Source: Patescibacteria group bacterium (lineage in GTDB: Bacteria; Patescibacteriota; Patescibacteriia; 2-12-FULL-57-11). From it: a stretch of 64,000 bases of DNA. The notes beneath the pieces are model-generated. The model saw only the letters and a list, made by a program, of their open reading frames with translations, did no database searches and was not told the origin of the DNA. The position numbers and the translations under genes are program-made. Each line of letters opens with the position of its first letter. Within the stretch, counting starts at the first letter, position 1. The stretch is taken from contig SCUL01000002.1 of NCBI GenBank assembly GCA_004297205.1, positions 786,893 through 850,892 of the forward strand, read 5' to 3'. This document shows, in pieces, positions 1,862 through 63,343 of this stretch.

Positions 1862-3217
1862 ATGGGCATCCCCAAACACGTCTTCAAATCCTACGACATC
1901 CGCGGCCTCTCGCCGGGTGAAATCGACGCCGATGCGGCGCGTCTCCTGGGCCGCGCCGTCGTCGCGTACGGCGGTGCGAAGACCGTGCTCGTGGGCCGCG
2001 ACATGCGCGCCACGACGCCCGAGCTCGCCGCGGCGCTCATCGCCGGCATCATGGAACAAGGCGCGGACGTGGTCGACATGGGGCTGACCACGACGCCGAT
2101 GTTCTACTTTGCCACGGCCACGGCCGAAGCCGACGCCGGGGTCATGGTCACGGCTTCGCACAACCCGGCCCAATACAACGGCTTCAAGCTCTGCCGCGGC
2201 GACGCCGGCCCGATCGGCGCGGGCAGCGGCATGGAGGAGATCCGCGATGCCGTGCTGGCCGGAAATTTTTCGGACGCGGCGCGTCAGGGGAGCGTGCGCG
2301 AGATCGCGCTGCGCGATGCGTACATCGACAAAGTACTGTCGCTCGTGCCGGACGCCGCGCAGGCCGACATGACCGTCGCCGTTGATACGGGAAACGGCAT
2401 GGCCGGCCATGTTGTGCCCGCGCTGTTCGCCAAGCTGCCCGACGTCCGTCTCGAGGCCATGTACCTGGAGCTGGACGGCACGTTCCCGAACCATGAAGCG
2501 AATCCCATCAAGGAAGAAACGCTCGCGGATCTCAAAGCGGCGGTGAAAAAACACGGTGCGGCGCTCGGCATCGCCTACGACGGCGACGCCGACCGTGTCG
2601 GCTTCGTGGACGACCAGGGCGAGACGATTCCGGGCGATCTCGTTGCAGCGCTGGTCGCTCCTGAGCTGCTGCGCCAGAACCCGGGCGGCACGGTGCTGTC
2701 CGACGTGCGCTGCAGCCGGGTTGTGCCTGAGGAAGTGGAAAGGGCCGGCGGTGTCCACGTCATGAGCCGGGTGGGGCACGCCCACATCAAACGCCAGATG
2801 AAGGAGCTCGGCGCCGTCTTTGCCGGGGAGCTCTCCAGCCACTTCTACTTCCGCGACTTCTACGGCGTGGAATGCGCGGACGGCGTGGCGCTGATCCTGA
2901 TCGACCTGATCCGTCGCAGCGGCAAGCCGCTCTCGGAGCTGGTCCGGCCGTTGCGCCGCTACGCCCAGTCCGGCGAAATCAATTTCGAGATCGAAGACAA
3001 GGCCGGCGCCATCGCCCGTATCCGCGCCGCCTATGCTCCGGGCGCCGCGCAGATCATCGAACTCGACGGCATCCGCATCGAACACGACGACTGGTGGTGC
3101 TCGGTGCGCGCCTCGAATACCGAACCCGTGCTGCGCCTGAACGTCGAGGGCAAGAGTCGGGAAAAGATGGAGCAGATGCGCGATGCCATCGCGGCCTTGA
3201 TCCGCGGCGAGCAGTAA
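1862..3217 (+). CDS. phosphomannomutase/phosphoglucomutase (alpha-D-phosphohexomutase family)
   Basis: 451 aa; active-site serine loop TASHNPAQYNGFK; metal-binding DGDADR; typical length. Confidence 0.85.
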   Translation: MGIPKHVFKSYDIRGLSPGEIDADAARLLGRAVVAYGGAKTVLVGRDMRATTPELAAALIAGIMEQGADVVDMGLTTTPMFYFATATAEADAGVMVTASHNPAQYNGFKLCRGDAGPIGAGSGMEEIRDAVLAGNFSDAARQGSVREIALRDAYIDKVLSLVPDAAQADMTVAVDTGNGMAGHVVPALFAKLPDVRLEAMYLELDGTFPNHEANPIKEETLADLKAAVKKHGAALGIAYDGDADRVGFVDDQGETIPGDLVAALVAPELLRQNPGGTVLSDVRCSRVVPEEVERAGGVHVMSRVGHAHIKRQMKELGAVFAGELSSHFYFRDFYGVECADGVALILIDLIRRSGKPLSELVRPLRRYAQSGEINFEIEDKAGAIARIRAAYAPGAAQIIELDGIRIEHDDWWCSVRASNTEPVLRLNVEGKSREKMEQMRDAIAALIRGEQ

Positions 3218-3225
3218 CACGTCCT

Positions 3226-5670
3226 GTGCGACCCAAAGCCACCGCACTCCACTTTCTGGGATACACGTTTGATGCCGCCTCGGCGACGGCCACCTTTGCG
3301 TACCAGATCCGCTTCTCCAACCGCGCGCCGCTCGACTTTACGGAGACGATCACGCTGCCGTCCGCCCGTACGGAGCTGAACGCCGATCAGCTCGCGCGGT
3401 TCCTGGAGCCGCTGCATCTCATCCTCGGCATCAGCTATTACAAGATCTACTGCCCGCCGAAGATCGTGCTGCCGTTCCGGCTTTCCCGGGCGCAGGCTGA
3501 TTTTTGGAACACGGTCTACCGCAAGGGGCTCGGGGAATTCCTGTACGTGAACAAGCTGTCCTCGTCCGCGCTGGCGCGTTTTCCGCACGGGGTCGTCGCT
3601 CCCACCCCGGCGCGCGTGGCGACGACAGATGCGGCGCTCCTGGGTATCGGCGGCGGCAAGGATTCGATCGTGGCCGCCGAGCTGCTCAAGGAACTGCCGG
3701 AGCCTCTCCGGGTGTCGTCGTTTTTGGTGGAGACCCAGCGGCGCGATCCGATCGCCCGGCGCGTCATGGGCGCGATCGGGTTTCCCGCGTACGTCGTCCG
3801 CCGCACGCTTGACCCGAAACTGTTCCAGCTGCACGAAGGCGCGTACAACGGCCACATTCCCGTGTCGGCGGTGTTCGCGTTCATCGGGCTGTTCGCCGCC
3901 GCGTCCACCGGCCGCAGATACGTCATCGTCGGCAACGAGGTGAGCAGCAACGCCGGGAACCTCACCTGGCGGGGCGAGATGATCAACCACCAGTGGAGCA
4001 AGTCCGCGGAGTTCGAAGCGCTGCTTCAGGACTACACGCGGCGTTTCATCTCCCCGGACGTCACGTATTTCTCCCTGCTGCGCCAGTTCTACGAGATCCG
4101 CGTCGTCGAACAGTTCAGCAAACACCCGCGCTACTTTCGGCTGTTTACGAGCTGCAACCGCAGCTTCCGCGTGCACAAGGAGCGGCCCGGGACGCTTTGG
4201 TGCGGCGCCTGCCCGAAATGCGCCTACGTCTTCCTGATTCTTGCGCCGTTCCTGCCCAAGAAGACACTGATCGGCATCTTCGGCAAGGACCTGCTCGCCG
4301 ACGCCGCGCTGCTCCCGCTCTACGCGGACGTGCTCGGCTTTGGCACGGCCAAACCGTTCGACTGCGTCGGGACGTTTGAGGAAGCGCAGGCTGCGCTGTT
4401 CCTCGCCGCCAAGACGTTTCCGCGGGCCGCGGCGGTGAATGCGTACCTGCGCAAGGTGGCCAAGCCCGCGGAGAAGGTCCGCCAGGTGTTCCGCACGGTG
4501 CCGGCGCCGACCCTGCCCACGCCGTTCCGCTTTGCCGGGATGCGCAGCGTCGTCCTGCTTGGCTACGGCAAGGAGGGGAAGGTGAGCGAGCGGTACCTGA
4601 AAAAGTTCTATCCGCAGCTCACGATCGGGGTGCTGGATGAAGCGCGCGATCCGCGGTACCTGGAAAAGCAGCACGCCTTTGATCTGGCCGTGAAGACGCC
4701 GGGGATCCCGAAGCGCCTGGTAACGATCCCGTACGTCACGGCCACGAACCTCTTTTTCAGCCGCGTGAAGAACACCACGGTCGGCGTGACCGGCACCAAA
4801 GGCAAGAGCACCACCACGGCGCTCATCCACGACATGCTCGCGGCCGGCGGGCGGAAGGTGCGCCAGGTGGGCAACAACGGGCGGCCGATGCTCGAGGTGC
4901 TCCTCGGCCGGATCGACCCCGACGAGATCTTCGTCGTGGAACTCTCGAGCTACATGCTCGACGACATTCTGTATTCCCCGCGGGTGGCGCTGCTCCTCAA
5001 CCTGTTTCCGGAGCACATGAACTACCACGGCGGTGTGGCGCCGTATTACGCCGCCAAGCAGCACATCTTCACCTTCCAAAAGCCGGGCGACGTGGCGCTC
5101 CGCCCGCCGTTTCCCCGCGTCCCTGCGTTGCTCCGGACGCATACGCGGCTTGCCGGGGAGCACAACCGCAAGAACATCCTGGCTGCAGCCGCAGCGGCGC
5201 GTGTCTTCAAGGTTCCGGAAGCGGCGATGCGCCGGGCCGTGCGCGGCTTCACGCCGCTGCCGCACCGGCTGGAGAACGTCGGCACGTACCGCGGGATCAC
5301 GTTCTACGACGACGCCATTTCCACCACGCCGGAGTCGACCATCGCAGCGCTGCGGGCGATCCCCAACGTGCGCACCATCTTCCTGGGTGGCCTCGACCGC
5401 GGCTATGACTTCCGCGCGTTGGAAAAGGAGCTGCGCCGCCGCAAGGTGAAGAACGTGGTGCTGTTCCCGGACAGCGGGAAGCGTATCCTGCGTTCGCGCA
5501 AAGGCTTCACCGTGCTCGAGACGCGCAGCATGAAGGCGGCGGTTGCGTTCGCGTACGCGCATACGCCCGCCGGAGCGGTCTGCCTGCTGTCGACGGCCTC
5601 GCCCAGCTACTCCGTCTGGAAGAACTTCGAGGAGAAGGGTGATATGTTCAAGAGGTACGTGAGAGGGTAG
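3226..5670 (+). CDS. murD: Two-domain fusion: N-terminal PP-loop (QueC-like) ATP-pyrophosphatase-type domain plus C-terminal complete MurD-type UDP-N-acetylmuramoyl-L-alanine--glutamate ligase
   Basis: Continuous ORF; probable GTG start at 3226 just after the pgm stop, and no in-frame ATG for the first ~180 codons. N-terminal part has the PP-loop GIGGGKDS and a Cys cluster SC-x17-CGACPKC (QueC-like CxxCxxC). C-terminal part aligns along its length with E. coli MurD: VGVTGTKGKSTTTALI (P-loop), GNNGRPML, VVELSSYMLDDI, LLNLFPEHMNYHG, LAGEHNRKNILAAA, FTPLPHRLE, YDDAISTTPESTIAAL, LLSTASPSYSVWKNFEEKGDMF. Confidence 0.75.
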   Translation: MRPKATALHFLGYTFDAASATATFAYQIRFSNRAPLDFTETITLPSARTELNADQLARFLEPLHLILGISYYKIYCPPKIVLPFRLSRAQADFWNTVYRKGLGEFLYVNKLSSSALARFPHGVVAPTPARVATTDAALLGIGGGKDSIVAAELLKELPEPLRVSSFLVETQRRDPIARRVMGAIGFPAYVVRRTLDPKLFQLHEGAYNGHIPVSAVFAFIGLFAAASTGRRYVIVGNEVSSNAGNLTWRGEMINHQWSKSAEFEALLQDYTRRFISPDVTYFSLLRQFYEIRVVEQFSKHPRYFRLFTSCNRSFRVHKERPGTLWCGACPKCAYVFLILAPFLPKKTLIGIFGKDLLADAALLPLYADVLGFGTAKPFDCVGTFEEAQAALFLAAKTFPRAAAVNAYLRKVAKPAEKVRQVFRTVPAPTLPTPFRFAGMRSVVLLGYGKEGKVSERYLKKFYPQLTIGVLDEARDPRYLEKQHAFDLAVKTPGIPKRLVTIPYVTATNLFFSRVKNTTVGVTGTKGKSTTTALIHDMLAAGGRKVRQVGNNGRPMLEVLLGRIDPDEIFVVELSSYMLDDILYSPRVALLLNLFPEHMNYHGGVAPYYAAKQHIFTFQKPGDVALRPPFPRVPALLRTHTRLAGEHNRKNILAAAAAARVFKVPEAAMRRAVRGFTPLPHRLENVGTYRGITFYDDAISTTPESTIAALRAIPNVRTIFLGGLDRGYDFRALEKELRRRKVKNVVLFPDSGKRILRSRKGFTVLETRSMKAAVAFAYAHTPAGAVCLLSTASPSYSVWKNFEEKGDMFKRYVRG

Positions 5671-5679
5671 AGTAGCCCC

Positions 5680-6777
5680 ATGTTTTTCACTGCGATCATC
5701 TTCCTCGTCGTCCTCTCCGTGCTCGTCTTCGTGCACGAATTCGGGCACTTCATCACCGCCAAGAAGCTCGGCGTGCGCGTCGATGAATTCGGCTTCGGAT
5801 TCCCGCCGCGGGCTTTTTTCGTGAAGCGCGGCGGCACGGTGTATTCCCTCAACTGGATTCCGTTGGGCGGCTTCGTGAAGATCAAAGGCGAGATGGCGGA
5901 GGAGGCCACCGGCCGCGACAGCTTTGCCACGCAGAGCGCGCCGCGCCGGTTGGTCATTCTCGCCGCGGGCGTCGTCATGAACATGCTGCTCGCGTGGTTC
6001 CTCTTTTCCGTGGGCACCATGATCGGGCTGACCGAGACGGTCGACGCCGTGCATCCCTCGGCCACGGTCCGGAATCGCGCCGTGACCGTGACCGACGTTC
6101 TTCCGGATTCTCCCGCGGCGGCAACCGGCATCGGCTACGGCGACAACATCATCGCGGTGAACGGCGCGTCCATCACCGAAGTTGCCGCGCTCCAGGAAAT
6201 GCTGCGCGGCGCTTCCGGGGAAGTGGTGCTGACACTGAAGCGCGGCCAGGCCTCGCGCGAGGTGCGCGTCACGCCGGTCCTGCTGGAGCAAACCGGCAAA
6301 CCGGGCATCGGCGTCGGGCTCCTCGAAACCGGCAAGGTGTCCTACCCGTTCTGGTACGCGCCCGTCCGCGGCGCGCAGGTCACCGTGATGAACACGCTGG
6401 CCGTGTTCCAGGCCTTCGGCGGACTTATCGTCGGACTCGTTTCCGGCAAAGGGGTGAGCGCCGATGTGGCCGGCCCGGTCGGGATTGCCGTCGCCACCGG
6501 CGAAGTGGCGCGGCTCGGCTTCATTTATCTTCTGCAGTTCACGGCGCTGCTTTCGATCAACCTCGCCGTCATCAACATCCTGCCGCTGCCCGCGCTCGAC
6601 GGCGGTCGCGTGCTGTTTCTGATCATCGAAAAGATCCGCCGCAAGCCGGTTGACCGCCGGATCGAGGGGATTGTGCACCAGATTGGATTTGCCATGCTCC
6701 TCCTCCTGGCGCTTCTCGTCACCATCCAGGACGTCCGCCGTTTCGGGGGGCAGATCATTGATGGATTGATGCGGTGA
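5680..6777 (+). CDS. rseP: RIP zinc metalloprotease RseP (site-2 protease, M50 family with PDZ domain)
   Basis: HEFGHF zinc motif in the first TM helix, a central PDZ-like region, and a C-terminal LDGG motif (NILPLPALDGGRVLF). Confidence 0.85.
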   Translation: MFFTAIIFLVVLSVLVFVHEFGHFITAKKLGVRVDEFGFGFPPRAFFVKRGGTVYSLNWIPLGGFVKIKGEMAEEATGRDSFATQSAPRRLVILAAGVVMNMLLAWFLFSVGTMIGLTETVDAVHPSATVRNRAVTVTDVLPDSPAAATGIGYGDNIIAVNGASITEVAALQEMLRGASGEVVLTLKRGQASREVRVTPVLLEQTGKPGIGVGLLETGKVSYPFWYAPVRGAQVTVMNTLAVFQAFGGLIVGLVSGKGVSADVAGPVGIAVATGEVARLGFIYLLQFTALLSINLAVINILPLPALDGGRVLFLIIEKIRRKPVDRRIEGIVHQIGFAMLLLLALLVTIQDVRRFGGQIIDGLMR

Positions 6778-6872
6778 CGACCCTCCCGTCCCTCCCTTGA
6801 CAAGGGAGGGATTGCACGAGAATTCCCCTCCTTGTCAAGGAGGGGATGGGGTGGTCCACCAACGGGTCGCCG

Positions 6873-6899
6873 GTTGACACGACCGGCGTTTTCGTATAC
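6873..6899 (+). promoter_or_regulatory. sigma70-like promoter (TTGACA-N15-TATACC) for the hypothetical gene at 6968; the -35 sits inside the inverted repeat CGCCGGTTGACACGACCGGCG
   Basis: Hexamer match and spacing read directly; followed by the strong SD GAGAGGAGGA 5 nt before the ATG at 6968. Confidence 0.4.
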
Positions 6900-6967
6900 C
6901 AAGAGACCGTCATGTCGGCTCCGGGACGGTCCCTGGAATGGCGTGATGCAACGAGAGGAGGATTGTC

Positions 6968-7534
6968 ATGGCGAAGCATATCGTCACCGGCGATCAGTAT
7001 CGGACGATTGACAGGCGGATGCGCGAGATCAAGCGGATGCTCGACCAAAAGAACGGCAGCCCGCTCGATCCGGAGGAGGTGGCCGAGCACCTGCAGAGGA
7101 TCATCGATCAGCCGTCATCCATCATCGACTGCTCCCTGCAGCCGATGATCCCCGAGGGCTGGTCCATCCGCGAAGAGGACCAGATCAAGAGCCGCTTCCA
7201 GGGCGAGCTGATCTGGAGTCCGGAGAAGATCGGTCTCCACCTCGACGAGGCTCAGAAGACGGGCTCGATCGTCGGGAACGAGCTGCGGAAGAAGCTCGAG
7301 GGCCAGCCGGTGCTCCCGGCCAAGGTCCTCGACTACCTGCTCGCCCACCCGGCGCTCATCCCGCCGGACTGGAAGGGGAAGTACGTCTATTTCTGGGGCA
7401 GCGTCTACCGCCGCTCGGACGGCAACGCCTCGGTCCGTTGCCTCTACTGGGGCGACAGGGGCTGGTATTGGCTCAGCTACCGGCTTGGCCACTACTGGGG
7501 CCACCGGGACCCCGGTGCGGTCCTCGCGGGTTAG
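6968..7534 (+). CDS. hypothetical protein with a W/Y/G-rich C-terminus
   Basis: 188-aa ORF with strong SD GAGGAGGA and an upstream promoter-like element; C-terminal ...YWGDRGWYWLSYRLGHYWGHRDPG; no recognisable domain. Confidence 0.5.
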   Translation: MAKHIVTGDQYRTIDRRMREIKRMLDQKNGSPLDPEEVAEHLQRIIDQPSSIIDCSLQPMIPEGWSIREEDQIKSRFQGELIWSPEKIGLHLDEAQKTGSIVGNELRKKLEGQPVLPAKVLDYLLAHPALIPPDWKGKYVYFWGSVYRRSDGNASVRCLYWGDRGWYWLSYRLGHYWGHRDPGAVLAG

Positions 7535-7536
7535 GA

Positions 7537-7594
7537 CCTTGGTGCGTGGTCCCTTGGTCGATGAGACCTTGGAAGCATGGCCCTTGGATACGCG
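7537..7594 (+). repeat. four tandem degenerate 15-bp repeats with a conserved CCTTGG core (period exactly 15 bp) at the start of the pheS upstream region
   Basis: CCTTGG at 7537, 7552, 7567 and 7582; the units are gaCCTTGGtgcgtgg / tcCCTTGGtcgatga / gaCCTTGGaagcatg / gcCCTTGGatacgcg. Confidence 0.6.
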
Positions 7595-16167: not shown

Positions 16168-16217
16168 CGTGTTCCCGGCGGCGCGGTGTGGTATAGTGAT
16201 GGGGACTTGAGGAGGAT

Positions 16218-17687
16218 ATGCCCCCGAAAAAGAAACCCGCAGCCAAGAAACGCGTTGCGCCGCGTCGCAAGAAGGGCGACCTGGAGCCGTCCGCCGAACT
16301 CGCGGCAGCCGTGACGCCGCCCGCACCGCCGTGGGCCGTCCCGCCGCCGAGCGATTTTATTGCGCCGCCGTCCGTGGTCCCGGAAGAGCACATGGTATCG
16401 CTGGACGTCGACACCGTGCACGACGCGCCGACGACGCTCGCCATCAAAGGCCACGGCGAGGCGGCGGATCTCCCGATCGACCACAACGAGCCGGTCCGCC
16501 ACATCGCCGTCGGCCGCCCCACGCCGTCGCCTGCAGCACGCTCGACCGCCGTGCCGCGCGCCGCGCGTCCGGCCGTCCACCTTTCCGTCTACCGCAAGCT
16601 GGCCACCACCTTCATCGGGTTGGCCGTGCTCTTGCTCGGTTTCGTGTTGTACCTGTCCTTCACCCGCGCCGCGGTCACCGTGGTGCGCAGCGCCCTGCCG
16701 ATCTCCACCACCTTCACGGCCAAGGTCGCGCCGGAACCGCAGGACGCCTCGACCGTGCCCGGCGCGGTGCTCGAAACCGTGGCCGAAGGAACCAAGACCG
16801 TGGCCGCGAGTGGGGAGAAGACCATCGTCGAAGGCAAGGCCTGCGGCGCGGTCACCATCGTCAACACCCAGGCCAAAGCGCAGCCGTTGGTGGCGACGAC
16901 GCGCCTGCTCTCGCCGGAAGGCGTGCTGTTCCGACTGGAGAGAAACGTGACTGTCCCTGCCAACGGTCGCCTGGAAACGCGCGCCTGCGCCGATCAGCCG
17001 GGCAAGGCCGGCGACATCGACCCGACGCGCTTCACCATCCCGGGACTTGCCGCGGCGCTCCAGGAGAAGACCTACGCCGTATCCACGGCCAGCATGACCG
17101 GCGGGGCCGTCGAAGTGTCGGTGATCACGCAGCAGGAAGTCGACGCCGCAGTGGCCGCCTACGCCAGAGAAGTCGCCGGTCAGGCCGCGGAGACGCTCAA
17201 AAAGCTCCTGTCCCGACCGGAAGTCGGCAGCGGCGTGTTCTTCAAAGAACAGGTGGTACGCCGCGAGACGACCGCCAAGGTGGGGGAGTCGCAGCCGACC
17301 TTCGACGTGACCGTGGCGGTGCACGTGGAAGCCGTTTTCTATGACAAGCAGACGCTGCTCCGCGTCGCCGAAGCATCGCTCCGTGCCGCCGCGCCGGCCG
17401 ACAAGGAAGTGCGCGGCATCACCGCCGACGGGCTCACCGTGGAACTCGTCGCCAGCGACACCGCCGCCAAATCCGCGACGCTCTCCGTGACCGTGCCGGG
17501 CGAGGCGGTGCTCAAAGAGACCCACGAGGCCTTCGATCCGGAAAAGTTGACCGGCCTGTCCGTCGAAGACGTGCAACGGGACCTGGGGTCGCTCGACGGC
17601 GTGGAATCCGTCACCGTGAAGATCACCCCGGCCTTCCTGAAGCGCCTGCCGAATTTGGCGGATCATATCGATATCACGTTCGAGTAA
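16218..17687 (+). CDS. hypothetical membrane-anchored protein (basic N-terminus MPPKKKPAAKK, Pro-rich linker, one TM helix, large extracytoplasmic domain)
   Basis: 489 aa; TM LATTFIGLAVLLLGFVLYLSF; no recognisable catalytic motif. Confidence 0.55.
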   Translation: MPPKKKPAAKKRVAPRRKKGDLEPSAELAAAVTPPAPPWAVPPPSDFIAPPSVVPEEHMVSLDVDTVHDAPTTLAIKGHGEAADLPIDHNEPVRHIAVGRPTPSPAARSTAVPRAARPAVHLSVYRKLATTFIGLAVLLLGFVLYLSFTRAAVTVVRSALPISTTFTAKVAPEPQDASTVPGAVLETVAEGTKTVAASGEKTIVEGKACGAVTIVNTQAKAQPLVATTRLLSPEGVLFRLERNVTVPANGRLETRACADQPGKAGDIDPTRFTIPGLAAALQEKTYAVSTASMTGGAVEVSVITQQEVDAAVAAYAREVAGQAAETLKKLLSRPEVGSGVFFKEQVVRRETTAKVGESQPTFDVTVAVHVEAVFYDKQTLLRVAEASLRAAAPADKEVRGITADGLTVELVASDTAAKSATLSVTVPGEAVLKETHEAFDPEKLTGLSVEDVQRDLGSLDGVESVTVKITPAFLKRLPNLADHIDITFE

Positions 17688-19647: not shown

Positions 19648-21570
19648 TTATCGAGGTGGCTTGCTGCGCCCGATGCCGATGTAGCTGCTGGAGCTGCTCT
19701 TGCCTGCGCCGGCGCGGAAGATGCTGGCGCGATCACCCGTCGCCGGGGTCTCCATGATGTCGCGTACCATCTTGTCCATCTTCTGGAATTGGATGACTTC
19801 CTGGGAGGTCATGGTTTCTTTCGGCCTCGGCCCGCCGCCGAACAGCCGGCGGAAGAAACCGACCTTGGGCTGCGGCTTCATGGCCTCGGCCAGCCGCGCG
19901 TTGTCTTTCATCAACAGTTCCCAGTACATGGCGGAGAACTTGTCCATGTCCGCGCGCTCTTCGAAGGAGCGCTTGGGATCGCGTACGGCGGCGAGGCTGA
20001 ACGCCTCCATGAAATCGGTCTTGTTGGAGAAGTCGCGGGCGCTTTTGGCTTCGATGTTGCCGATCTCGGCCGCGGCCCGGTTCACGTCCATGTCAGGATA
20101 CAGCTCTTGGGCGCGTTCGCGGCGGGCGAGTTCCTCCGGTTTTTCTCCCTGTGCGAACCAAGCTTCCTCTTCACCCGGCTTCAGCTCGTTGCGCTCGCGG
20201 CGCAGCCGATCCTGTTCGGCGCGGACCTTGGCTTGGAGTTCGTCGATGCGCGCATTGACTCGTTCAACGGAACCCCGGCCAATTTCAGCGGCTTTGGCGG
20301 TTGCTTCGGCTCGGAAACGCGCTCTGAACTCTTCGTCGGTTTCCGCGACGGGTTCCACGGGCAGGTTCTCCGGCACGTTGGTGTCCGGCCCGGCTTCCAT
20401 GGCGCCGACCAACTCGTTGGCCTGGCGACGGGCGGTTTCCTCCGCGGTCGGCGGGGGAGGCAGGTTGCGCAACTCCTCGAGCGCGGCGGCTGTTTCGGTC
20501 GGCGCCTTACCGAGTTTGACTTTCTGTTCGTCCAGCCATGTGCGGAACTCCGCGGCGCTTTTTGCTTTCTCGCCCGCCTTGCTGCGGGCTTCGCTCTCGG
20601 CCAGGCCGGCGGCGATGATGGCGGCCATCTCCTGCTTCGCGCGGCGGCGCTCTTCGAGGCGGGCGCGGAATTCGGCCGCTGCCGTTTCTGCCGCCTCGAT
20701 GTTTGCTTTCTCTTTGACGGCCTTCCTGGTGCGCTCGATCAACTCGCGCTGCTTGGCCGCGGCGCGTTCAGCGCCCGCCGTTTCGTCTGAGACGTAGCGG
20801 TCCCACATCTTGCGGGCCTTGGAAATGTCTTTGACGCGGCTCTGGAAAGCATCCGCGCTCATGTCGCCCCGGCCGTAGCGGTCGAGTGCGTCCTCCACGG
20901 TTTGTACGGCACCGCGGATCAGCGACTCGCCGGCCTTGGGCAGCGCACCCGATTCGAGCGCCTGGCTGTAGGTATTTCGGAGGTCAACCAGCACCGCACG
21001 ATCCGTTTCCGCGGCCTCAAAACTTTCCCGTGCAGCCTCCCGGCCCTTGATGCGTGCCGCGCTGCTGCGCTTGAGGGTGCCCTTGGCAAGCAAACGGTCT
21101 TCTTTCTCCCACGGGACGTCTCCCTTGAGCGCGTGGACGCGCTGGCGCAGGCTGTCGATGCCGTTCGCCAGCGCGGCGCGGGCCTCTGGGTCGGTTTCCG
21201 TCTCCAACTGCTCGGCCGTCAGGTCGTACTGTTTCTGGAGGTCCTTGAGTTGCGTCTTCAGGTCGGACGGTTGTTCGCGCAGCCTTTCTGGAACGCGGAC
21301 GGTCTGGGTGGTCTCGCGCGGCATTTCCATGCGCGCGTAGTCCTCGGCGTGTTCGTCGATGAAGGCTTGGAGCGGGGCGATCTCCTCATCAATTTTTTTG
21401 AGTTCGGCAGCGGAAGCGCCTTCGCCTTCGAGCCGGGCGCGTTCGGCCTGCAACTCGAACATCCGGGCCGAGACGTCGCCAAGATAGGCCTCGTTGATTT
21501 CGGTGCTTTCCACTTTCTTCGGCTCCTGCTCCGCGGCGTTGCGCCGCATGTCCCGTGCCCCTTCAGCCAT
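19648..21570 (-). CDS. large hypothetical protein, highly charged (E/R/A/K-rich), predicted all-alpha/coiled-coil, no TM segment
   Basis: 640 aa; high GC3 codon bias; upstream on the minus strand a TATACT hexamer and SD-less leader; no domain recognised. Confidence 0.55.
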   Translation of the reverse strand: MAEGARDMRRNAAEQEPKKVESTEINEAYLGDVSARMFELQAERARLEGEGASAAELKKIDEEIAPLQAFIDEHAEDYARMEMPRETTQTVRVPERLREQPSDLKTQLKDLQKQYDLTAEQLETETDPEARAALANGIDSLRQRVHALKGDVPWEKEDRLLAKGTLKRSSAARIKGREAARESFEAAETDRAVLVDLRNTYSQALESGALPKAGESLIRGAVQTVEDALDRYGRGDMSADAFQSRVKDISKARKMWDRYVSDETAGAERAAAKQRELIERTRKAVKEKANIEAAETAAAEFRARLEERRRAKQEMAAIIAAGLAESEARSKAGEKAKSAAEFRTWLDEQKVKLGKAPTETAAALEELRNLPPPPTAEETARRQANELVGAMEAGPDTNVPENLPVEPVAETDEEFRARFRAEATAKAAEIGRGSVERVNARIDELQAKVRAEQDRLRRERNELKPGEEEAWFAQGEKPEELARRERAQELYPDMDVNRAAAEIGNIEAKSARDFSNKTDFMEAFSLAAVRDPKRSFEERADMDKFSAMYWELLMKDNARLAEAMKPQPKVGFFRRLFGGGPRPKETMTSQEVIQFQKMDKMVRDIMETPATGDRASIFRAGAGKSSSSSYIGIGRSKPPR

Positions 21571-21630
21571 AAAAAGCGTGGTAAAAGTCAGCGAAAGTAT
21601 ACCATATGATAAAAAAAAGAGCGTCCCCAG

Positions 21631-23367: not shown

Positions 23368-25146
23368 CTAGCTGGCTTTGTCGGCCCTGTCAAGGGCCGG
23401 GGACACGGCGGATTCTGCCGGCGGAAGGACGGTGACGCGGACCATCGGGTAGCGTTCCTGGTCGGCCATCTGGCGCAGCGCGCCTTCGGGATCTTTGGCG
23501 GCGGCCAGCGTGGCGTCGGCGCGCAGCTGGGCGTGCTCGGCCGGCAAGATTACGAATGCGTCGCCGAACTCGGCGGCGAAGGATTCACGTGCCGTCTGGT
23601 TGGCGCGCACCGGGCGCTCCAGGCCGCGCAGTTTCAGCGTCTCCTGGCCACGGCGGTTCATGGCGTCGTGCAGCGGCTCCAGATGCCCGTTACGCAGGCG
23701 ATAGACGAGGATGCCGTTGCCCAAGCGCCCGGAGATGCTGGCGGCGCGGGTTTCCAGGAGGCGCAGCCGTTCCTCCTCTGGGAGACGTTCTTTCAGGCGT
23801 TCGGCCAAGGTGTAGCGGGCGGGCCGGGACAGGCCGCGGAAGGCATCCGATGCCATGACGGCAGCCACGGACTCCTGCCGCTCGCGCAGCGCATCCTCGA
23901 GCGCCCCGATCGTGGCGCGTTCCTCGTCTCGAAGATCCGGTTCGCGCAGCCGGGCCAACAGGCCGGGGTCGCGGATGATCTGCTCTTTGGCCGCGGCTTC
24001 TGCCAGCAGCGCGCGTTCATCGGAAGCCAGCGGCGGCTCGCCCGTCTGGAGGATCTTCTCGACCCGGGCTTCGGCATTCTGCATGTTGCTGCGCAGCTCC
24101 TGGAGCAGACCGCGGACGGCAGCGAGTTCTTCCCGCTGCTGCGTGAGTTCTTCGACCACGGACCGGGCGTTTCCCCAGTCATGCTGGGAGGCTTTATGTT
24201 TGTAGAAATCGGTTTTCTCCGCCGCAGAATAAATCGGGAGACGAGCAATGCGTTGATAGACGTACCCTTCCGTTTTTTTGCCTTGGCGATGTTCCTTCTT
24301 GGACAGCCGGCGCATCTCCGTCACCGCATCCGGCGCCTGTTCTTTCTCGAACCGGGCCAGAAAGTCGGCCGCGCCGCGTTTGAGCGACATCAACAGGTCG
24401 TCTTGGCCGCCTTCCAGGAATTTCGCTGCTTCACCGCCTTTGAGGTAGCGGCCGGCGCGGTCCAAGAGCGGTTTCAAGCGTTCTTTGGACGTTTCGTAGT
24501 CCTTGCGCAGGCGCCGCTCTTCGTCGACGTACTTCCCCAGATAGCTTTTCCACTCCATTTCATCCGCGTTGAGGGTTTTTCTTCCGACCAGGGCTTCCGC
24601 CGTGTCCTTGTCCGCGCCGACGATTTCTTCCTCGGAGATCCGTTCCGGGATGACGGCCAGGGCCACGGAAGCGGGGAGTTCGAGCGCGGTTTCCCGGTCT
24701 CCGCGGGCGCGCAGATCGACGTCCCGCAGGAGGAGGTCCCTCTCGGCCAGGGCGTTTTCGCTGGCCGAGGCCAGCAGGTCTTCCGCGCGAGTTCGCCGCG
24801 GCCGGAAGATTTCGGCGCCGGCGTCCCCCGTGGAAACCGCTTCCCGGTCCATGGCCAGCGTTTTCAAGTCGTACTCGGCCACGGCAAAGATGTCGTTGGC
24901 AACATGCGCCGCCGCTTCTTCCGGGGCGTCCCGTCCGTCAACAAAGACAACGAGTCCGGTTTCCGGGTCGGTCCTGACCGCGAATTCCGGCGTGCCGGAG
25001 GCGCGATCCTCGATCTCGAAATAGCGCAGGGGATGACGCTTCGTTTCCACGCCGGACTCGCGGCGCTTGCCGACCGGCGTGCGCCTGTCGCTGCCTTCAG
25101 CTCGGGTTTCAGGAAAGATGTCTGCAAGCGGTCGGGCGCGTTCCAT
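23368..25146 (-). CDS. large hypothetical protein, charged/low-complexity; paralog of 25684..27807
   Basis: 593 aa from the internal ATG (MERARPLADIF...); the N-terminal block PETGLVVFVDGRDAPEEAAAHVANDIF resembles DSGTFIFVAGENAEPTAVEGIVDSAL of the downstream paralog. Confidence 0.55.
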   Translation of the reverse strand: MERARPLADIFPETRAEGSDRRTPVGKRRESGVETKRHPLRYFEIEDRASGTPEFAVRTDPETGLVVFVDGRDAPEEAAAHVANDIFAVAEYDLKTLAMDREAVSTGDAGAEIFRPRRTRAEDLLASASENALAERDLLLRDVDLRARGDRETALELPASVALAVIPERISEEEIVGADKDTAEALVGRKTLNADEMEWKSYLGKYVDEERRLRKDYETSKERLKPLLDRAGRYLKGGEAAKFLEGGQDDLLMSLKRGAADFLARFEKEQAPDAVTEMRRLSKKEHRQGKKTEGYVYQRIARLPIYSAAEKTDFYKHKASQHDWGNARSVVEELTQQREELAAVRGLLQELRSNMQNAEARVEKILQTGEPPLASDERALLAEAAAKEQIIRDPGLLARLREPDLRDEERATIGALEDALRERQESVAAVMASDAFRGLSRPARYTLAERLKERLPEEERLRLLETRAASISGRLGNGILVYRLRNGHLEPLHDAMNRRGQETLKLRGLERPVRANQTARESFAAEFGDAFVILPAEHAQLRADATLAAAKDPEGALRQMADQERYPMVRVTVLPPAESAVSPALDRADKAS

Positions 25147-25275
25147 ACCGCACAATTCTAGCAGGAACAGGCCATCTTGACAGGCGGGCGCAGAACGGCT
25201 AGGGTTGCCGGTCGGCAAGGAAGTGTGGAAATGGCCCGACTGCGCTACCATGTGCGCATGGAAAGGGGACGTCTC

Positions 25276-25659
25276 ATGTCGTTTTTCGCGCGACTTGTCG
25301 GCGCCGACAGCGGCATCGACGAGCACCCTTCGTGGCTTCTGCAGTGCCTGCACTACGCGCGCATCCGCAAGAACCCCGACGGATCGCTCCTCCTCATCGT
25401 CGAGGCCGACGACAAGATCGGCATGCACGGCACCTTCGCGCGGCTCCAGCCGCGCCTCGTCACCGCCGCCGGGGTCGAGATTCCGCTCACGGTCGTCGAG
25501 TACCTGCGCGACTGCGGCTTCCCGGTGCGCTGTACCGCGCGTCCGGCCGACGCCGTCACGTTCGACGCCGACGGCAAGGTCTCCGTCCAGAAGCTCCGCC
25601 TGAGCTTCAATGGCGTGACCAAGGACCTCGAGGTCACCAACGCGAAAGAGGGCTCCTGA
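25276..25659 (+). CDS. hypothetical protein
   Basis: 128 aa starting MSFFARLV... 7 nt after SD AAAGGGGA; divergent from the 593-aa gene; TTGACA at ~25166 upstream. Confidence 0.45.
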   Translation: MSFFARLVGADSGIDEHPSWLLQCLHYARIRKNPDGSLLLIVEADDKIGMHGTFARLQPRLVTAAGVEIPLTVVEYLRDCGFPVRCTARPADAVTFDADGKVSVQKLRLSFNGVTKDLEVTNAKEGS

Positions 25660-25683
25660 CGTGCAGGTCGCCCTCGTTTTTTA

Positions 25684-27807
25684 TTACGTGGGAATCCGCA
25701 GTACCAGGTGGGGACGCTCCGAGGTATTTTTGAGCCGCTCGGAGTTGGTTTTTGCGCTGCGGTTGGGGTCGCCTTTGAGTTCGGCCAGGATTTTTTCGAT
25801 GCCCTCGGTGCCGACGCGCTCCTGCTGGCCCAGCACGAATTCTTCGGCTGAGGAGGGAACGATGACAATCTGGTCGCCGGCCTGGACGCCGATATCGACG
25901 GCGGCATTGGCCTGCTGACTGACTGTCCGCTTGGTGGTGGAGAGGATGCGCTGCGCTTCCTTGTCTTCCTGATTGACCTCCAGATCCTCCGAAGTTTTTC
26001 CGGCTTTCGCGCCGGTATCCACCTTCGTGACTTTGCCGTCGCGGCCGACCTTGAGGACGGTCAGGGCTTCACCGGGCTTGCCGCGGAGCATCAGACGGCG
26101 GGCCTGGAGCAGTTCGGTGGCCTGCTTCGACTCAATGACGCCCAGGTTCTTCAACCGTTGCACGACCACGAACCGGCCCTCGCGCGACAAGCCCGTGAAG
26201 CGCGGGTCCTTCAGGAGCGCCATAGGATTCTCCTCAGCCCGCTTCATTTCGTAGGTCAGGTCGTCGGCCGTCTTGCTTTCCCCCTCGGAGAGCGACGGTT
26301 CGATCAGACGGTCGGCTTTTTCCGGGTCCTTGGGGGCGGCCGATTCGAAGCTGCGCAGCAGCAATTCCAGATTCGTCTCCGGCGGGTACGACAGCGCCTG
26401 GTAGAGCGCCAGTCGCTCCGCGGGGGATTCCAACAGTCGCTGGACCGACGGGGAGTTCAGGAACGTCATAGCTGCCTGGGTGGCGGCGTTTCGTTCCGTA
26501 GCGGTCTTGGGGTCCCGGATTTTTTTGAAGAAGGAGTTGAGTTTTTCCGCGCTGCCCTTGACCGCGGCCGCCGCCTCGGGGGAGAGTTCGGGCGCGGAAA
26601 AATTCTTGGCCGTTTCCGGCGTCAGCATGATTTCCACTTTCAGCCGTTCGAGGAGGATAGGCAGTGTTTCCGTGGCGAGCTTGGCGAGTTCTGGATCGTT
26701 TTTCAGTTCGCGGTAGGTTTCCTCGAACTGTTCGTCCGTTTGCGTCAACCGGGCCTGCCGTGTTTCTTCCAGCTTGCGGGCCAAGATCTTGGCGACTTCC
26801 ATGTTGTTCATCAGCTGCTGATGTTCCGGACCGACCGCAGTCAGCGCCTCTTGCGCCTCGTACACCTTGCTGATGTAGGCGCGTTGCTCCGGATTGAGCG
26901 ATTCATCGCCGTCGAGATCGGATTTCGTCGGCCACTTGATGAGCGGATCGCCGCCCAACCAATTTTTGACTTCGGCGCGGATGGCGTCGTATTTGGTTTT
27001 GGCGTCCTCAACGTTCTGTGTGGAGGCGCGTTCCTGCTCTTCCAATCCGCGCGTGCCTTTGTTCACGAGTTCCCCGATCACGGCTTTCAGTTCGGCCTTG
27101 GATTTGTCATCGCCGTAGAATTCCTGCGGCGTGATCTCCTCGTTAAACACCTGGCCGACGACGAAAGGGGGGACTTCGATGGCCGAGGCCTTGTCGCCGC
27201 GCGCCAGCTTGTGGGCGTTCTCGCGGACCACGGCGTCGAGCGCGCCGCGTGAAGCCGCGGACATGAGCCGCGTGTCGATCGACGAGGCGCGGGCGCGGGA
27301 CGTTTCCCCGTGGGCCAGGCTGACCGCCTTCTGCTCCGGCCCCGAAGATTCCTTCAAGCGTTCCAATGCGGAGTCAACGATGCCTTCGACGGCCGTCGGT
27401 TCGGCGTTTTCCCCGGCGACGAAAATGAAGGTCCCACTGTCCGGGTTGACGTCCAGGCCGGCCTTCCCGCGTTTGCCGGCCACATTGCTGGCGGCTTCGA
27501 ACACCGGACCTTTCGGTTCCTGCTCACGTACGGTTTCGGGAGCCGTGGGGGCGATCTCGGGCTTGGCGCCGGGGCGGGAGGTCCGTTTCCGTTCCACGTC
27601 GGATTCCGCCGGCTGTTCGGCAACGTCGATCTCCTTCAAGCTGCTGTCCGCCAGATAGGTCTGCCCGGTCACGTCGATGCGCGGCGGCGGGGGCGGTACG
27701 TAGTCCTTCGGAACCGCCCTTTCCGGGGGCACGGGCGGTACGGGAGATTCGCGGCGCAGCGGCCGCTTCGTCGAACCGCCTTTTTCCGTCATGGTTCCGC
27801 GTTCCAT
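25684..27807 (-). CDS. large hypothetical protein with a Pro-rich N-terminus and a long charged helical body; paralog of 23368..25146
   Basis: ~708 aa; start uncertain (ATGs at 27807 and 27792; the track ORF extends to 27894 and would overlap miaA). Confidence 0.55.
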   Translation of the reverse strand: MERGTMTEKGGSTKRPLRRESPVPPVPPERAVPKDYVPPPPPRIDVTGQTYLADSSLKEIDVAEQPAESDVERKRTSRPGAKPEIAPTAPETVREQEPKGPVFEAASNVAGKRGKAGLDVNPDSGTFIFVAGENAEPTAVEGIVDSALERLKESSGPEQKAVSLAHGETSRARASSIDTRLMSAASRGALDAVVRENAHKLARGDKASAIEVPPFVVGQVFNEEITPQEFYGDDKSKAELKAVIGELVNKGTRGLEEQERASTQNVEDAKTKYDAIRAEVKNWLGGDPLIKWPTKSDLDGDESLNPEQRAYISKVYEAQEALTAVGPEHQQLMNNMEVAKILARKLEETRQARLTQTDEQFEETYRELKNDPELAKLATETLPILLERLKVEIMLTPETAKNFSAPELSPEAAAAVKGSAEKLNSFFKKIRDPKTATERNAATQAAMTFLNSPSVQRLLESPAERLALYQALSYPPETNLELLLRSFESAAPKDPEKADRLIEPSLSEGESKTADDLTYEMKRAEENPMALLKDPRFTGLSREGRFVVVQRLKNLGVIESKQATELLQARRLMLRGKPGEALTVLKVGRDGKVTKVDTGAKAGKTSEDLEVNQEDKEAQRILSTTKRTVSQQANAAVDIGVQAGDQIVIVPSSAEEFVLGQQERVGTEGIEKILAELKGDPNRSAKTNSERLKNTSERPHLVLRIPT

Positions 27808-27856
27808 AGGATCGCAGCCATTGTAGCCAATGGGGCTCATCAGGTATAGAGGAGGC

Positions 27857-28753
27857 ATGGCCGCGGAACAACTGATCGCCGTCGTCGGCCCCACCGCCTC
27901 CGGAAAGACCGCGCTTGCGGTCCGCTTGGCGCTGGCATTCGACGGCGAACTCGTGTCCGCGGATTCCCGCCAGGTCTACCACGGCATGGACATCGGCACC
28001 GGCAAGGAGCGCGATCCGCTGCCCGGGCCGGACGGCGTTCCAACGCTTCTCGGCGTGCCGCAGCACTTGATCGACCTCGTGGAGTCGGATGAAGCGTTCT
28101 CGCTGGCCGACTGGCAGAAGCGCGCCTTCGCCGTCATCGCAGACGTCCTCGGGCGCGGCAAGCTGCCGATCCTCGTCGGCGGGACCGGGCTTTATGTGAA
28201 AGCCGTGGTCGATGCCCTCGATTTGCCGGACGCGCCGCCGGATCTGGGGCTGCGACGCCGCCTCGAAGGGAAAACGTCGTCCGAGTTGCTCTGGGAGCTG
28301 CGCGACCTTGATCCGGACAAAGCCAAGACCATCGACCGTTTCAACAAGCGGCGGCTGATTCGCGCCATCGAGATCGCCCGGGCCGCCGTGGCGGGGGAGG
28401 AGCATGCCGTCGGCAAGGAGTGGCCGCACTACGACGTGTTGCAGATCGGCATCGACCTGCCGCGGGAGGAGTTGTACCGCCGGATCGATGCCCGCGTTGA
28501 CGAACAGATGGCGCGCGGCCTGGCCGGCGAGGTGGCCGGTCTCGTGAAGCGTTACGGGAAAGAATTGCCGGCGCTCTCCGGCATCGGCTATCAGGAGCTG
28601 GTGGACTCGGCGCCGGACGCGGTGCAGCGCATCAAATTCGACACCCATGCCTACGCCCGCCGCCAGATGACCTGGTTCCGCAAGGACAAGCGCATCCATT
28701 GGGTCGCCGACCAGGAAGAGGCCGTGGCATTGGCCCAAGTATTTTTGGCGTAG
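27857..28753 (+). CDS. miaA: tRNA dimethylallyltransferase
   Basis: P-loop VVGPTASGKTALAVRLA, DSRQVYHGMDIGTGK motif; start at the ATG after SD AGAGGAGG. Confidence 0.85.
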   Translation: MAAEQLIAVVGPTASGKTALAVRLALAFDGELVSADSRQVYHGMDIGTGKERDPLPGPDGVPTLLGVPQHLIDLVESDEAFSLADWQKRAFAVIADVLGRGKLPILVGGTGLYVKAVVDALDLPDAPPDLGLRRRLEGKTSSELLWELRDLDPDKAKTIDRFNKRRLIRAIEIARAAVAGEEHAVGKEWPHYDVLQIGIDLPREELYRRIDARVDEQMARGLAGEVAGLVKRYGKELPALSGIGYQELVDSAPDAVQRIKFDTHAYARRQMTWFRKDKRIHWVADQEEAVALAQVFLA

Positions 28754-55563: not shown

Positions 55564-55749
55564 ATGTCGAACCGCGCGTTGTCCTTGGCCGTCGTCGTGC
55601 TGATGATCCTCGGCATCCTGACCTCCGCCGTCGTCGTCATGCAGAACCAGCAGCTCCTCATCCTCGCCGACCGCGTCCAGGCGCTGTCCGACCAGGCCGA
55701 GCGGACCTTTGACATCGTCCAGAAGCGCGCTTTGGAGGAAAGATCCTGA
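55564..55749 (+). CDS. hypothetical small single-TM protein
   Basis: 61 aa MSNRALSLAVVVLMILGILTSAVVVMQ...; strong GC3 bias. Confidence 0.4.
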   Translation: MSNRALSLAVVVLMILGILTSAVVVMQNQQLLILADRVQALSDQAERTFDIVQKRALEERS

Positions 55750-55754
55750 CCCAT

Positions 55755-56786
55755 ATGCCCAAAAAGATCCGCATCGCCATCAACGGTTTCGGCCGCATCG
55801 GACGGACCGCCTTCAAAGCGGCGCTCAGCCGCCCGGACATCATGCGGAAGATCGAGGTCGTCGCCGTGAACGACCTGATGGAGCCGGCCACCCTGGCGCA
55901 CCTGCTGGCCTATGACTCCGTCTTCCGCCGCACCGCCGCCAAGATCCGGGCGACGAAGACGCACCTGATCGTGAACGGACAGAAGATCCTCGTGACCGCG
56001 GAGAAGGATCCGGCGACGCTGCCCTGGAAAAAGCTCGACGTCGACGTGGTGCTGGAATGCACCGGCCGTTTCACGTCGCGCGAACTCGCCTCCGGGCACG
56101 TCCGGGCGGGCGCGCGGCACGTCATCGTTTCGGCGCCTGCCAAGGAAACGCCCACCTATCTCATGGGCGTGAACGTCGACGCGCGTACTGCCAGGCAGAA
56201 GGTGCTCAACAACGCCTCCTGCACCACCAACTGCGTGGGACCCGTGACCGCAGTCATCGAGTCGCGCTTCGGCATCCGCAAAGCCGCCATGACGACGATC
56301 CACGCCGTGACCGCGGAACAGAATCTCGTGGACGGCCCGCCGCCCGGCGGCAAGAAAGGCGACCTGCGGCGCGCCCGCTCGGCCCTCGTCAACATGATTC
56401 CGACCACCACCGGGGCCGCCGTGGCGGCCACCGAAGCGCTGCCACGGCTCAAGGGGAAGTTCGACGGCATGGCCATCCGCGTGCCGGTCCTGGACGTTTC
56501 TTTGTCCGACTTCACCTTCCTCCTCAAAAAGAAGACGACCGTCGAGCAGGTCAACGCGGCCTTCGTGAAAGCCTCGCAACATTATCTGATGAAGGGCATC
56601 CTCGGCGTCTCGGACGTCCCGCTCGTCTCTTCCGACTACATCGGCTCCACCTATTCGGCGGTCGTGGACCTGCCGTACACCAAAGTGATCGACGGCGATC
56701 TGCTCAAGGTGCTGGCCTGGTACGACAATGAATGGGGCTACTCGCACCGCCTGATCGAAATGGCGGTACGGGTGGGGAAAAAATAA
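55755..56786 (+). CDS. gap: glyceraldehyde-3-phosphate dehydrogenase
   Basis: INGFGRIGR NAD motif and catalytic ASCTTNC. Confidence 0.9.
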   Translation: MPKKIRIAINGFGRIGRTAFKAALSRPDIMRKIEVVAVNDLMEPATLAHLLAYDSVFRRTAAKIRATKTHLIVNGQKILVTAEKDPATLPWKKLDVDVVLECTGRFTSRELASGHVRAGARHVIVSAPAKETPTYLMGVNVDARTARQKVLNNASCTTNCVGPVTAVIESRFGIRKAAMTTIHAVTAEQNLVDGPPPGGKKGDLRRARSALVNMIPTTTGAAVAATEALPRLKGKFDGMAIRVPVLDVSLSDFTFLLKKKTTVEQVNAAFVKASQHYLMKGILGVSDVPLVSSDYIGSTYSAVVDLPYTKVIDGDLLKVLAWYDNEWGYSHRLIEMAVRVGKK

Positions 56787-56847
56787 CACGCGTAGGGGCG
56801 GCATCCATGACGCCCCGTCAGGGCGCGATGAATCACGCCCCCACAGC

Positions 56848-58152: not shown

Positions 58153-58170
58153 CGGGTGTATACTGCTGCC

Positions 58171-59343: not shown

Positions 59344-59364
59344 TTCCCTCAACGAACACCGCGT

Positions 59365-59607
59365 ATGGAACAGCAACAGACGGCAGCCGAGAAACGGTCG
59401 CTCCGGCGCGAGATGGTCGAGCGCATGTCGGAGCTTTCCGCGACCGGGTTCGGGCTCGTTGCGGCGCTCGCCTGGAACGACGCCATCCAGCAACTGTTCA
59501 AAGAGCTTTTCGGCACCGCGTCAACGGTGGCTGCGAAATTCTTCTACGCCGTCGGCATCACCATCGTGGTCGTTCTTATTACGCGTTATCTCGTCATAAA
59601 AAAGTAA
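59365..59607 (+). CDS. hypothetical small protein with a C-terminal TM helix
   Basis: 80 aa; no recognisable motif. Confidence 0.4.
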   Translation: MEQQQTAAEKRSLRREMVERMSELSATGFGLVAALAWNDAIQQLFKELFGTASTVAAKFFYAVGITIVVVLITRYLVIKK

Positions 59608-59620
59608 CCCCAGGAGGATT

Positions 59621-60412: not shown

Positions 60413-61675
<1,263 letters not shown>

Positions 61676-61684
61676 ACAACACAG

Positions 61685-61713
61685 CAAAAACCGCGGCTCC
61701 GGTCGCGGTTTTG
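61685..61713 (+). terminator. intrinsic terminator ACCGCG-gctccggt-CGCGGT + TTTTGG after eno
   Basis: Stem plus T-run, preceded by an A-run. Confidence 0.6.
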
Positions 61714-61756
61714 GCTTGTCCTGCCCCGCGCCGCTGTGCCACAATGCGCAGCGACT

Positions 61757-63340: not shown

Positions 63341-63343
63341 GCT

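Follow-up and report, generated by a model that had tools for sequence, protein, structure and literature searches.

The MurL-MurD2 gene and its product

The DNA analyzed here is a window of 64 kb (64,000 nucleotides) from contig SCUL01000002.1 of a Patescibacteria group bacterium (assembly GCA_004297205.1). At positions 3226–5670 of its + strand lies a gene for a protein of 814 amino acids (aa) that joins a MurL-type epimerase half to a ligase half of the MurD2 type. MurD2 and MurL form a pathway that has been described before, and curated models are available for each of the two enzymes. The gene is one uninterrupted open reading frame (ORF) with an assigned GTG start at 3226 and a TAG/TGA stop at 5668–5670, and its frame on the + strand is open from stop to stop over 2731–5670. 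The start lies 9 nt past the stop codon (TAA, 3215–3217) of the upstream gene at 1862–3217, and the translation from 3226 starts with VRPKATALHFLGYTFD. The product is identical (100% over the full length) to the 814-aa NCBI protein EPO33_05295 (P0001; on a contig of 855,898 bp).

The domain junction falls at residues 438/439 (nt 4540), where neither a stop nor a frameshift is found. It is preceded by the linker PAPTLPTPFRFxG (residues 423–438, 4492–4539, +), in which P431 and G438 are invariant among 120 fusions, these being the best 120 database relatives of the full protein. A full-length AlphaFold2 (AF2) model of the fusion has a predicted local distance difference test score (pLDDT) of 93.1 and a predicted template modeling score (pTM) of 0.89, with a pLDDT of ~93–96 for the linker across the junction. 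The model shows a predicted compact two-enzyme architecture whose linker is ordered and conserved.

As the source is a metagenome-assembled genome and murL and murD2 are distinct, overlapping genes in related lineages, the fusion could in principle be an assembly or sequencing artefact that arose from a lost stop or a frameshift. This explanation deserves almost no credence. An independent Logan assembly of run SRR8426588 contains the identical gene without interruption, the 120 full-length homologues come from many samples and sources, 64 fused ORFs are present in species genomes of GTDB, and the linker is both conserved and modeled with high confidence. The artefact was rejected on the grounds of the second assembly, the recurrent fused homologues, and the conserved linker; the fusion is real. 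At the level of sequence and structure prediction it is solidly supported.

A preliminary description of the locus had read 3226–5670 as a single ORF with the motifs GIGGGKDS, CGACPKC, GTKGKST, ELSSY, PEHMNYHG, and PLPHRLE and a C-terminal motif, and had pointed to the region near nt 4540 as a possible site of a stop or frameshift. The ORF is confirmed, with agreement of the second assembly, and all motifs are found where they had been placed. The sizes of the two enzymes had to be corrected, however: the N-terminal enzyme comprises ~438 aa instead of ~480 aa, and the MurD part 376 aa instead of ~440 aa.

The N-terminal half resembles MurL

Residues 5–401 match the NCBIfam model of MurL, NF041275, with an E-value of 8.3e-100 and a score of 334 bits (profile positions 7–401 of 447). 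Precomputed matches from a newer Pfam version place MurL_N (PF26299) and MurL_epimerase_C (PF26298) in the same half. With the local Pfam copy, only the middle and C-terminal domains of Mur ligases were recognized in the full protein, and a PDB sequence search with the N-terminal half matched no chain, so the PDB contains no solved MurL. The profile matches support the assignment of residues 1–438 as MurL, an enzyme for which the consumption of one ATP, the release of AMP, and an exclusive L-to-D direction have been described (PMC8788868; PMC5808125).

The AF2 model of residues 1–438, which was built from 81 aligned sequences, has a pLDDT of 94.6 and a pTM of 0.93. The N-terminal subdomain (residues ~1–125, 3226–3600, +), to which MurL_N corresponds, takes on a three-stranded β-meander (strands 5–16, 21–30, and 36–43) with helices (53–108) and is probably involved in substrate binding or acts as a cap. 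It is followed by the PP-loop nucleotide-binding core (residues ~131–309, 3616–4152, +), a site of four cysteines, and a C-terminal helical region (residues 333–422, 4222–4491, +) that is covered by MurL_epimerase_C and includes the invariant motif K376-P377-F-D-C380-V381-G382. The family was aligned using 53 diverse MurL sequences with identities down to ~33%. C380 and V381 are invariant in all of them, and the residues that are invariant in the fusions are the ones that are invariant across the whole MurL family, stand-alone forms included.

The half is homologous to Xanthomonas MurL over nearly the entire catalytic region and shares with it the invariant GGKDS and Cys motifs as well as the genetic tie to a MurD-like ligase. 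The differences are the covalent fusion to the ligase, the loss of the last ~45 profile positions, which are replaced by the ordered linker, and the host, as the Candidate Phyla Radiation (CPR)/Patescibacteria are absent from the published distribution of MurL.

Relation of MurL to QueC-like PP-loop enzymes

In reviews by its discoverers, MurL is said to lack “known conserved domains” (PMC8788868; PMC5808125). The AF2 model suggests a relation to PP-loop enzymes of the QueC type. The PP-loop motif GIGGGKDS (residues 140–147, 3643–3666, +) harbors the segment GGGKDS (142–147), which sits between the first core strand (134–140) and a helix (145–155), and G143, G144, K145, D146, and S147 are invariant in the 53 family members. 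The predicted fold of the core is similar to that of solved PP-loop enzymes. Downstream follows a putative zinc site, C310-x15-C326-x2-C329-x2-C332 (4153–4221, +), the last three cysteines of which form the motif CGACPKC (residues 326–332, nt 4201). All four are invariant in the 120 fusions and at least 90% conserved in the family alignment. Their spacing resembles the pattern C188-x8-C197-x2-C200-x2-C203 of Escherichia coli QueC, and the sequence context is SC310N...WC326GAC329PKC332 in MurL versus TC188YN...GC197GHC200AAC203 in QueC. As judged by conservation and the QueC-like pattern, the site probably binds zinc.

Two results weigh against a close kinship with QueC. The similarity at profile level is weak: when the MurL family was compared with E. 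coli QueC alone by hhalign, the PP-loop came to lie in register with SGGQDS in an alignment of 60 columns, but the probability of 6.6% means that this match by itself does not count as evidence. In addition, no Pfam PP-loop family (QueC PF06508, ATP_bind_3, and others) was matched at E ≤ 1. The PP-loop assignment is therefore based on the predicted structure and the motifs. Further differences from QueC, the QueC-like proteins Cap9 and QatC, and the PP-loop ATP pyrophosphatases lie in the low identity (~15%) and the lack of any Pfam or hidden Markov model (HMM)-level match. Compared with QueC, the PP-loop of MurL begins with Gly instead of Ser, and MurL is extended by ~125 aa at the N-terminus and by a helical region of ~100 aa at the C-terminus. 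Its substrate is a nucleotide-sugar dipeptide, in which the configuration is inverted rather than an amide or nitrile formed.

The description of the N-terminal half as a PP-loop, QueC-like domain with a zinc motif, as first given, is hence supported mainly by structure prediction and motifs and not by profile statistics. An HMM search of this half against PP-loop families and MurL had been proposed as a check, and it gave a split outcome, as the MurL models were matched whereas the Pfam PP-loop families were not. QueC adenylates the carboxylate of 7-carboxy-7-deazaguanine, which gives a concrete basis to the proposed adenylation of the Glu α-carboxylate by MurL.

The C-terminal half is a shortened MurD

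The C-terminal half (residues 439–814) is a MurD by sequence and, as predicted, by fold. It passes the trusted cutoff of the murD model TIGR01087 (239.8 bits versus 211.95), and all top PDB matches, by sequence as well as by fold, are MurD (Foldseek E-values of ~1e-24 to 1e-27; template modeling (TM) score of 0.77 to closed E. coli MurD). Three domains can be distinguished. The UDP-binding N-terminal domain (4540–4740, +) was recognized by alignment to E. coli MurD and by its MurD fold in Foldseek. The central ATP-binding domain (4741–5256, +) is matched by Pfam Mur_ligase_M (E = 4e-18) and contains the P-loop GTKGKST (residues 523–529, 4792–4812, +). The C-terminal, amino acid–binding domain (5257–5667, +) is matched by Pfam Mur_ligase_C and contributes I698, R725, P793, and Y795. 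Further motifs of this half are ELSSY (572–576), PEHMNYHG (595–602), PLPHRLE (677–683), and SPSYSVWKNF (792–801).

The half resembles canonical E. coli MurD (1uag, 2uag, 1e0d) in its fold, its ATP-site residues, the position of the carbamoyl-lysine, and the TIGR01087 score. It is shortened to 376 aa, compared to 437 aa in E. coli MurD, with four segments missing from its N-terminal and central domains; these segments correspond to residues ~37–52, 81–88, 212–228, and 235–254 of the E. coli crystal structure. The N-terminal domain is ~27 aa shorter and the central domain lacks ~37 aa, so the shortening noted before for the middle region holds but also extends to the N-terminal domain. XOO_1320 MurD2 is likewise a three-domain Mur ligase; compared to it, the half is ~70–90 residues shorter, has trimmed UDP-binding and central domains, and is fused to MurL. 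The catalytic residues are complete: E572 is conserved, E596-H597 correspond to D182-H183 of E. coli MurD, and K611 corresponds to K198. The equivalents of K115, E157, H183, and K198 (E. coli numbering) are kept in 78 of 78 MurL-linked MurDs.

The loss of ~70 residues from the N-terminal and central domains, together with a Mur_ligase_M match that spans only profile positions 1–119 of 200, could be taken to mean that the MurD half has degenerated to a noncatalytic substrate-binding module, that the ligase is encoded elsewhere, and that the protein acts as MurL only. We regard this as very unlikely. The P-loop, E157, H183, K198, HR, DD(A/S), and the C-terminal SxxSxxxxxNF are invariant or nearly so in the 120 homologues, and the trusted cutoff of TIGR01087 is exceeded. 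In other CPR lineages, the separate murD2-like genes that adjoin murL are just as short (400–437 aa from stop to stop), the model is confident and superimposes with closed MurD at the TM score given above, and the 64-kb window contains no other Mur ligase. A shortened but catalytically competent MurD is thus preferred.

Residues that determine the glutamate specificity

According to a review that summarizes Feng et al. 2019 (PMC8788868), E197, R358, P433, and F435 of Xanthomonas MurD2 replace D182, K348, A414, and L416 of E. coli MurD; the double substitution E197D/R358K turns MurD2 into a D-Glu ligase, and the K319T variant of E. coli MurD gains acceptance of L-Glu. These positions were mapped onto the window protein with the help of two alignments, one to 1e0d by HMMER and one to E. 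coli MurD by MAFFT. D182 corresponds to E596 (E197 in Xanthomonas oryzae), which is Glu in 103 of the 120 fusions. K348 corresponds to R725 (R358), which is present in every one of the 120 fusions and in 78 of 78 sequences when separate and reverse-order forms are included. A414 corresponds to P793 (P433; 120/120), and L416 to Y795 (F435; 119/120), with Tyr as a conservative exchange for Phe. At the position of K319 the window protein has I698, and Ile, Leu, or Phe is found there in 76 of 78 MurL-linked MurDs.

In place of the Asp182/Lys319/Lys348 signature of canonical D-Glu–adding MurD, the protein thus carries E596, I698, and R725. It agrees with XOO_1320 MurD2 in having Glu and Arg at E197 and R358 and Pro and an aromatic residue at P433 and F435, as compared by published positions in E. 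coli numbering. From these residues, which are not fully diagnostic, we infer that the MurD half is of the MurD2 type and uses L-Glu. The MurL-MurD2 identity of the fusion, first suggested in the preliminary description, is upheld by NF041275, the MurL Pfam families, the MurD fold, and the MurD2-type specificity residues.

Occurrence of the fusion and its likely origin

The 120 fusions are 793–861 aa long, share a common four-domain composition, and are 57–86% identical to the window protein. Named sources among them are Uhrbacteria, Parcubacteria, Moranbacteria, Paceibacterota, and “Patescibacteria group”; they are labeled as hypothetical, Mur ligase family, or MurD, and a single one as MurL epimerase. 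A HMMER search with the MurL half retrieved 2,591 cluster representatives, 1,200 of them at E ≤ 1e-30, and the best 150 of the 2,591 are a mix of stand-alone proteins of ~440–460 aa and fusions of ~800–890 aa.

GTDB was scanned with one genome per species and the motif [IV]NHQWSKS, which gave at least 596 confirmed MurL relatives, and the best-scoring 80 loci were analyzed. Fused genes are present in 64 of them and separate, overlapping murL-murD2 genes in 13, while three lie on truncated contigs; murL is therefore coupled to murD2, by fusion or adjacency, in 77 of the best 80 loci. Judged by the titles of their records or by their resemblance to proteins of the CPR, all 80 appear to belong to this group. 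Most titles name CPR lineages, namely Parcubacteria and Uhr-, Morani-, Peregrini-, Peri-, Kaiser-, Staskawicz-, Harrison-, Buchanan-, Roizman-, and Levybacteria. Several third-party annotation (TPA) bins titled “uncultured Gammaproteobacteria” (L009, L012, L044, L064, L070–L075, L079, L081) encode a CPR-type MurL-MurD2 with 42–60% identity to the window protein. This title, like that of “Saccharibacteria” on other TPA bins, appears to be an unreliable label. The fusion had at first been thought to be unusual, but no other arrangement is as frequent among the retrieved CPR loci.

In the 13 separate pairs (e.g., in Levybacteria and at L070–L081), murL comes first and is followed by a murD2-like gene of 400–437 aa (stop-to-stop), so the order matches that of the fusion. 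The stop-to-stop frames overlap, for example, at 4998–7569 of the closed Roizmanbacteria chromosome CP066689.1 (L059), whereas the closed CPR chromosome OZ246396.1 carries the fusion. Most likely, murL and murD2 genes that overlapped became joined when the stop codon separating them was lost, and the separate overlapping arrangement, which occurs in Microgenomates-type CPR lineages, is likely the pre-fusion state. An 878-aa protein on a 1.19-Mb contig (P0262) has the reverse order, with MurD2 at residues 1–445 and MurL at 461–839. It has retained a full-length MurD central domain, carries Asp, Arg, Pro, and Phe at the four specificity positions, and is an independent second fusion event. That the two genes were fused at least twice is strong comparative evidence that both activities work together.

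Proposed reaction sequence and D-glutamate supply

We consider it highly probable that the protein is bifunctional, with a MurD2-type half that adds L-Glu to UDP-N-acetylmuramoyl-L-Ala (UDP-MurNAc-L-Ala) and a MurL half that inverts the added residue to D-Glu. Both activities are proposed by homology to characterized enzymes from Xanthomonas, Micromonospora, and Salinispora, the only ones for which ATP/Mg-dependent, one-way L-to-D epimerization with formation of AMP has been published (PMC8788868; PMC5808125). The reaction would start in the C-terminal half (residues 439–814), where UDP-MurNAc-L-Ala would be activated as an acyl phosphate under conversion of ATP to ADP and Pi, and L-Glu, not D-Glu, would be added. 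In the N-terminal half (residues 1–438), the QueC-like PP-loop domain would adenylate the α-carboxylate of the terminal L-Glu, converting ATP to AMP and PPi. The adenylation would acidify the α-proton, which could be removed by a conserved base, and reprotonation on the opposite face would invert the center. Candidate bases are C380, H210, H255, K259, and E238, all of which are invariant in the MurL family alignment, and C380 may act as acid/base. Hydrolysis of the adenylate would release the D-Glu product irreversibly and ready for MurE. The proposed adenylation draws on the reported AMP production of MurL and on the carboxylate adenylation by QueC, and channeling between the two active sites is a speculative extension.

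Neither a glutamate racemase nor a second Mur ligase was detected in the 64-kb window by Pfam scans of 30 further ORFs. The same holds for phmmer, with which every ORF of the window from 60 aa upward was searched; E. coli MurI and the MurD and MurL halves of the protein itself served as queries, and neither MurI nor another Mur ligase was found. No MurI homologue was found in the flanks of the 80 CPR loci.

Several points weigh against the bifunctional assignment. The activities of the CPR members are deduced solely by homology. The NF041275 score of 334 bits stays below the equivalog (same-function) cutoff of 700 bits set by NCBI, so a MurL function is inferred rather than certified, and its transfer is an extrapolation over ~40% identity; such a score is expected, because the host phylum is distant and the model was built on Xanthomonadales MurL only. 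Asp is retained at the position of D182 in 14 of 78 MurL-linked MurDs, and Streptococcus MurD, a D-Glu enzyme, likewise has Arg at the position of K348. The screen for murI and murD covered the 64-kb window, which is ~7.5% of the contig. A glutamate racemase of Ca. Saccharimonas aalborgensis is reported to be active, according to a reference cited in PMC11974145. Not all CPR bacteria can thus depend on the MurL-MurD2 route, and the supply of D-Glu varies.

An activated α-carboxylate need not lead to epimerization. In Gram-positives, MurT/GatD amidates glutamate to iso-glutamine, and the N-terminal half could in a similar way modify the Glu α-carboxylate, by amidation or with another nucleophile, while D-Glu is obtained from elsewhere. 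We hold this to be improbable. The invariant residues of the fusions are identical to those of the MurL family, the stand-alone forms among them, and the characterized members of this family are epimerases (PMC8788868; PMC5808125). All four published specificity positions of the MurD half are occupied by residues of the MurD2 type, and K319 is missing. Furthermore, neither a partner that could act as glutaminase or ammonia donor nor a murI was found near the gene, either in the window or at the 80 CPR loci. Ligation of L-Glu followed by its epimerization is thus the preferred interpretation.

Genomic surroundings

The neighbors of the fusion gene encode a ClpB-like ATPase and a LemA/MamQ-like protein. 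A gene of the phosphomannomutase/GlmM family lies directly upstream, and RseP directly downstream is followed by PheS and PheT. The upstream gene (1862–3217, +) belongs to the phosphomannomutase/phosphoglucosamine mutase family (PRK09542, 474 bits; archaeal-type GlmM, 375 bits; both below the cutoffs) and, if it is GlmM, would likewise serve the synthesis of peptidoglycan precursors. The neighborhood is not kept in other CPR genomes, as pmm adjoins the fusion in two of the 80 loci and RseP in none. The gene context adds nothing to the functional assignment.

The 64-kb window has a G+C content of ~65%, which is high for a Patescibacteria genome, and neither tRNA genes nor Rfam matches were found in it. 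Four large ORFs of 495–770 aa (16200–17687, +; 19648–21630, −; 23368–25680, −; 25684–27975, −) have a coding-like G+C content at third codon positions and no Pfam match at E ≤ 1e-5; they may encode lineage-specific surface proteins. The AT skew is strongly negative in the region between 20 and 28 kb of the window. A glycolytic cluster at 55713–63340 (+) comprises GAPDH, PGK, enolase, and the cofactor-independent PGM, with Fpg next at 63341. The cluster is broken by a pyridine-nucleotide-disulfide oxidoreductase (56755–58152) and a SIMPL/DUF541 gene (59600–60412).

Implications

The published distribution of MurL comprises Gamma- and Alphaproteobacteria and rare actinobacteria (PMC8788868; PMC5808125). 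MurD2 and MurL have been put forward as a target for narrow-spectrum antibiotics, as the route seemed confined to Xanthomonas, Xylella, Stenotrophomonas, and few other genera (PMC8788868). The occurrence in the CPR, mostly as fusions among the best 80 loci, changes the known distribution of the route. The literature searched contains no single-polypeptide form of MurL-MurD2, no MurL in CPR, no minimal MurD2 variant, and no mention that MurL has a PP-loop fold of the QueC type, although primary papers in subscription journals might mention any of these.

To our knowledge, MurL is the only ATP-consuming peptide epimerase, and its derivation from QueC, if true, would explain how such an enzyme works, for which a mechanistic basis has been missing. 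The structure-based link to QueC would account for the AMP production of MurL and offers catalytic residues that can be tested. With both active sites in one well-ordered predicted protein, the natural fusion is suited for structural and mechanistic work.

We lean towards a broader view as well, which seems reasonably likely: MurL-MurD2 would be the standard route to D-Glu in a large part of the CPR, in a fused and possibly channeling form that needs neither a racemase nor a pool of free D-Glu, and MurL would be an adenylating PP-loop enzyme that contains zinc and descends from QueC. At present, the fusion genes are labeled “hypothetical,” “Mur ligase family,” “MurD (D-glutamate ligase),” or even “endonuclease domain-containing,” and metabolic reconstructions of the CPR will therefore misjudge the supply of D-Glu.

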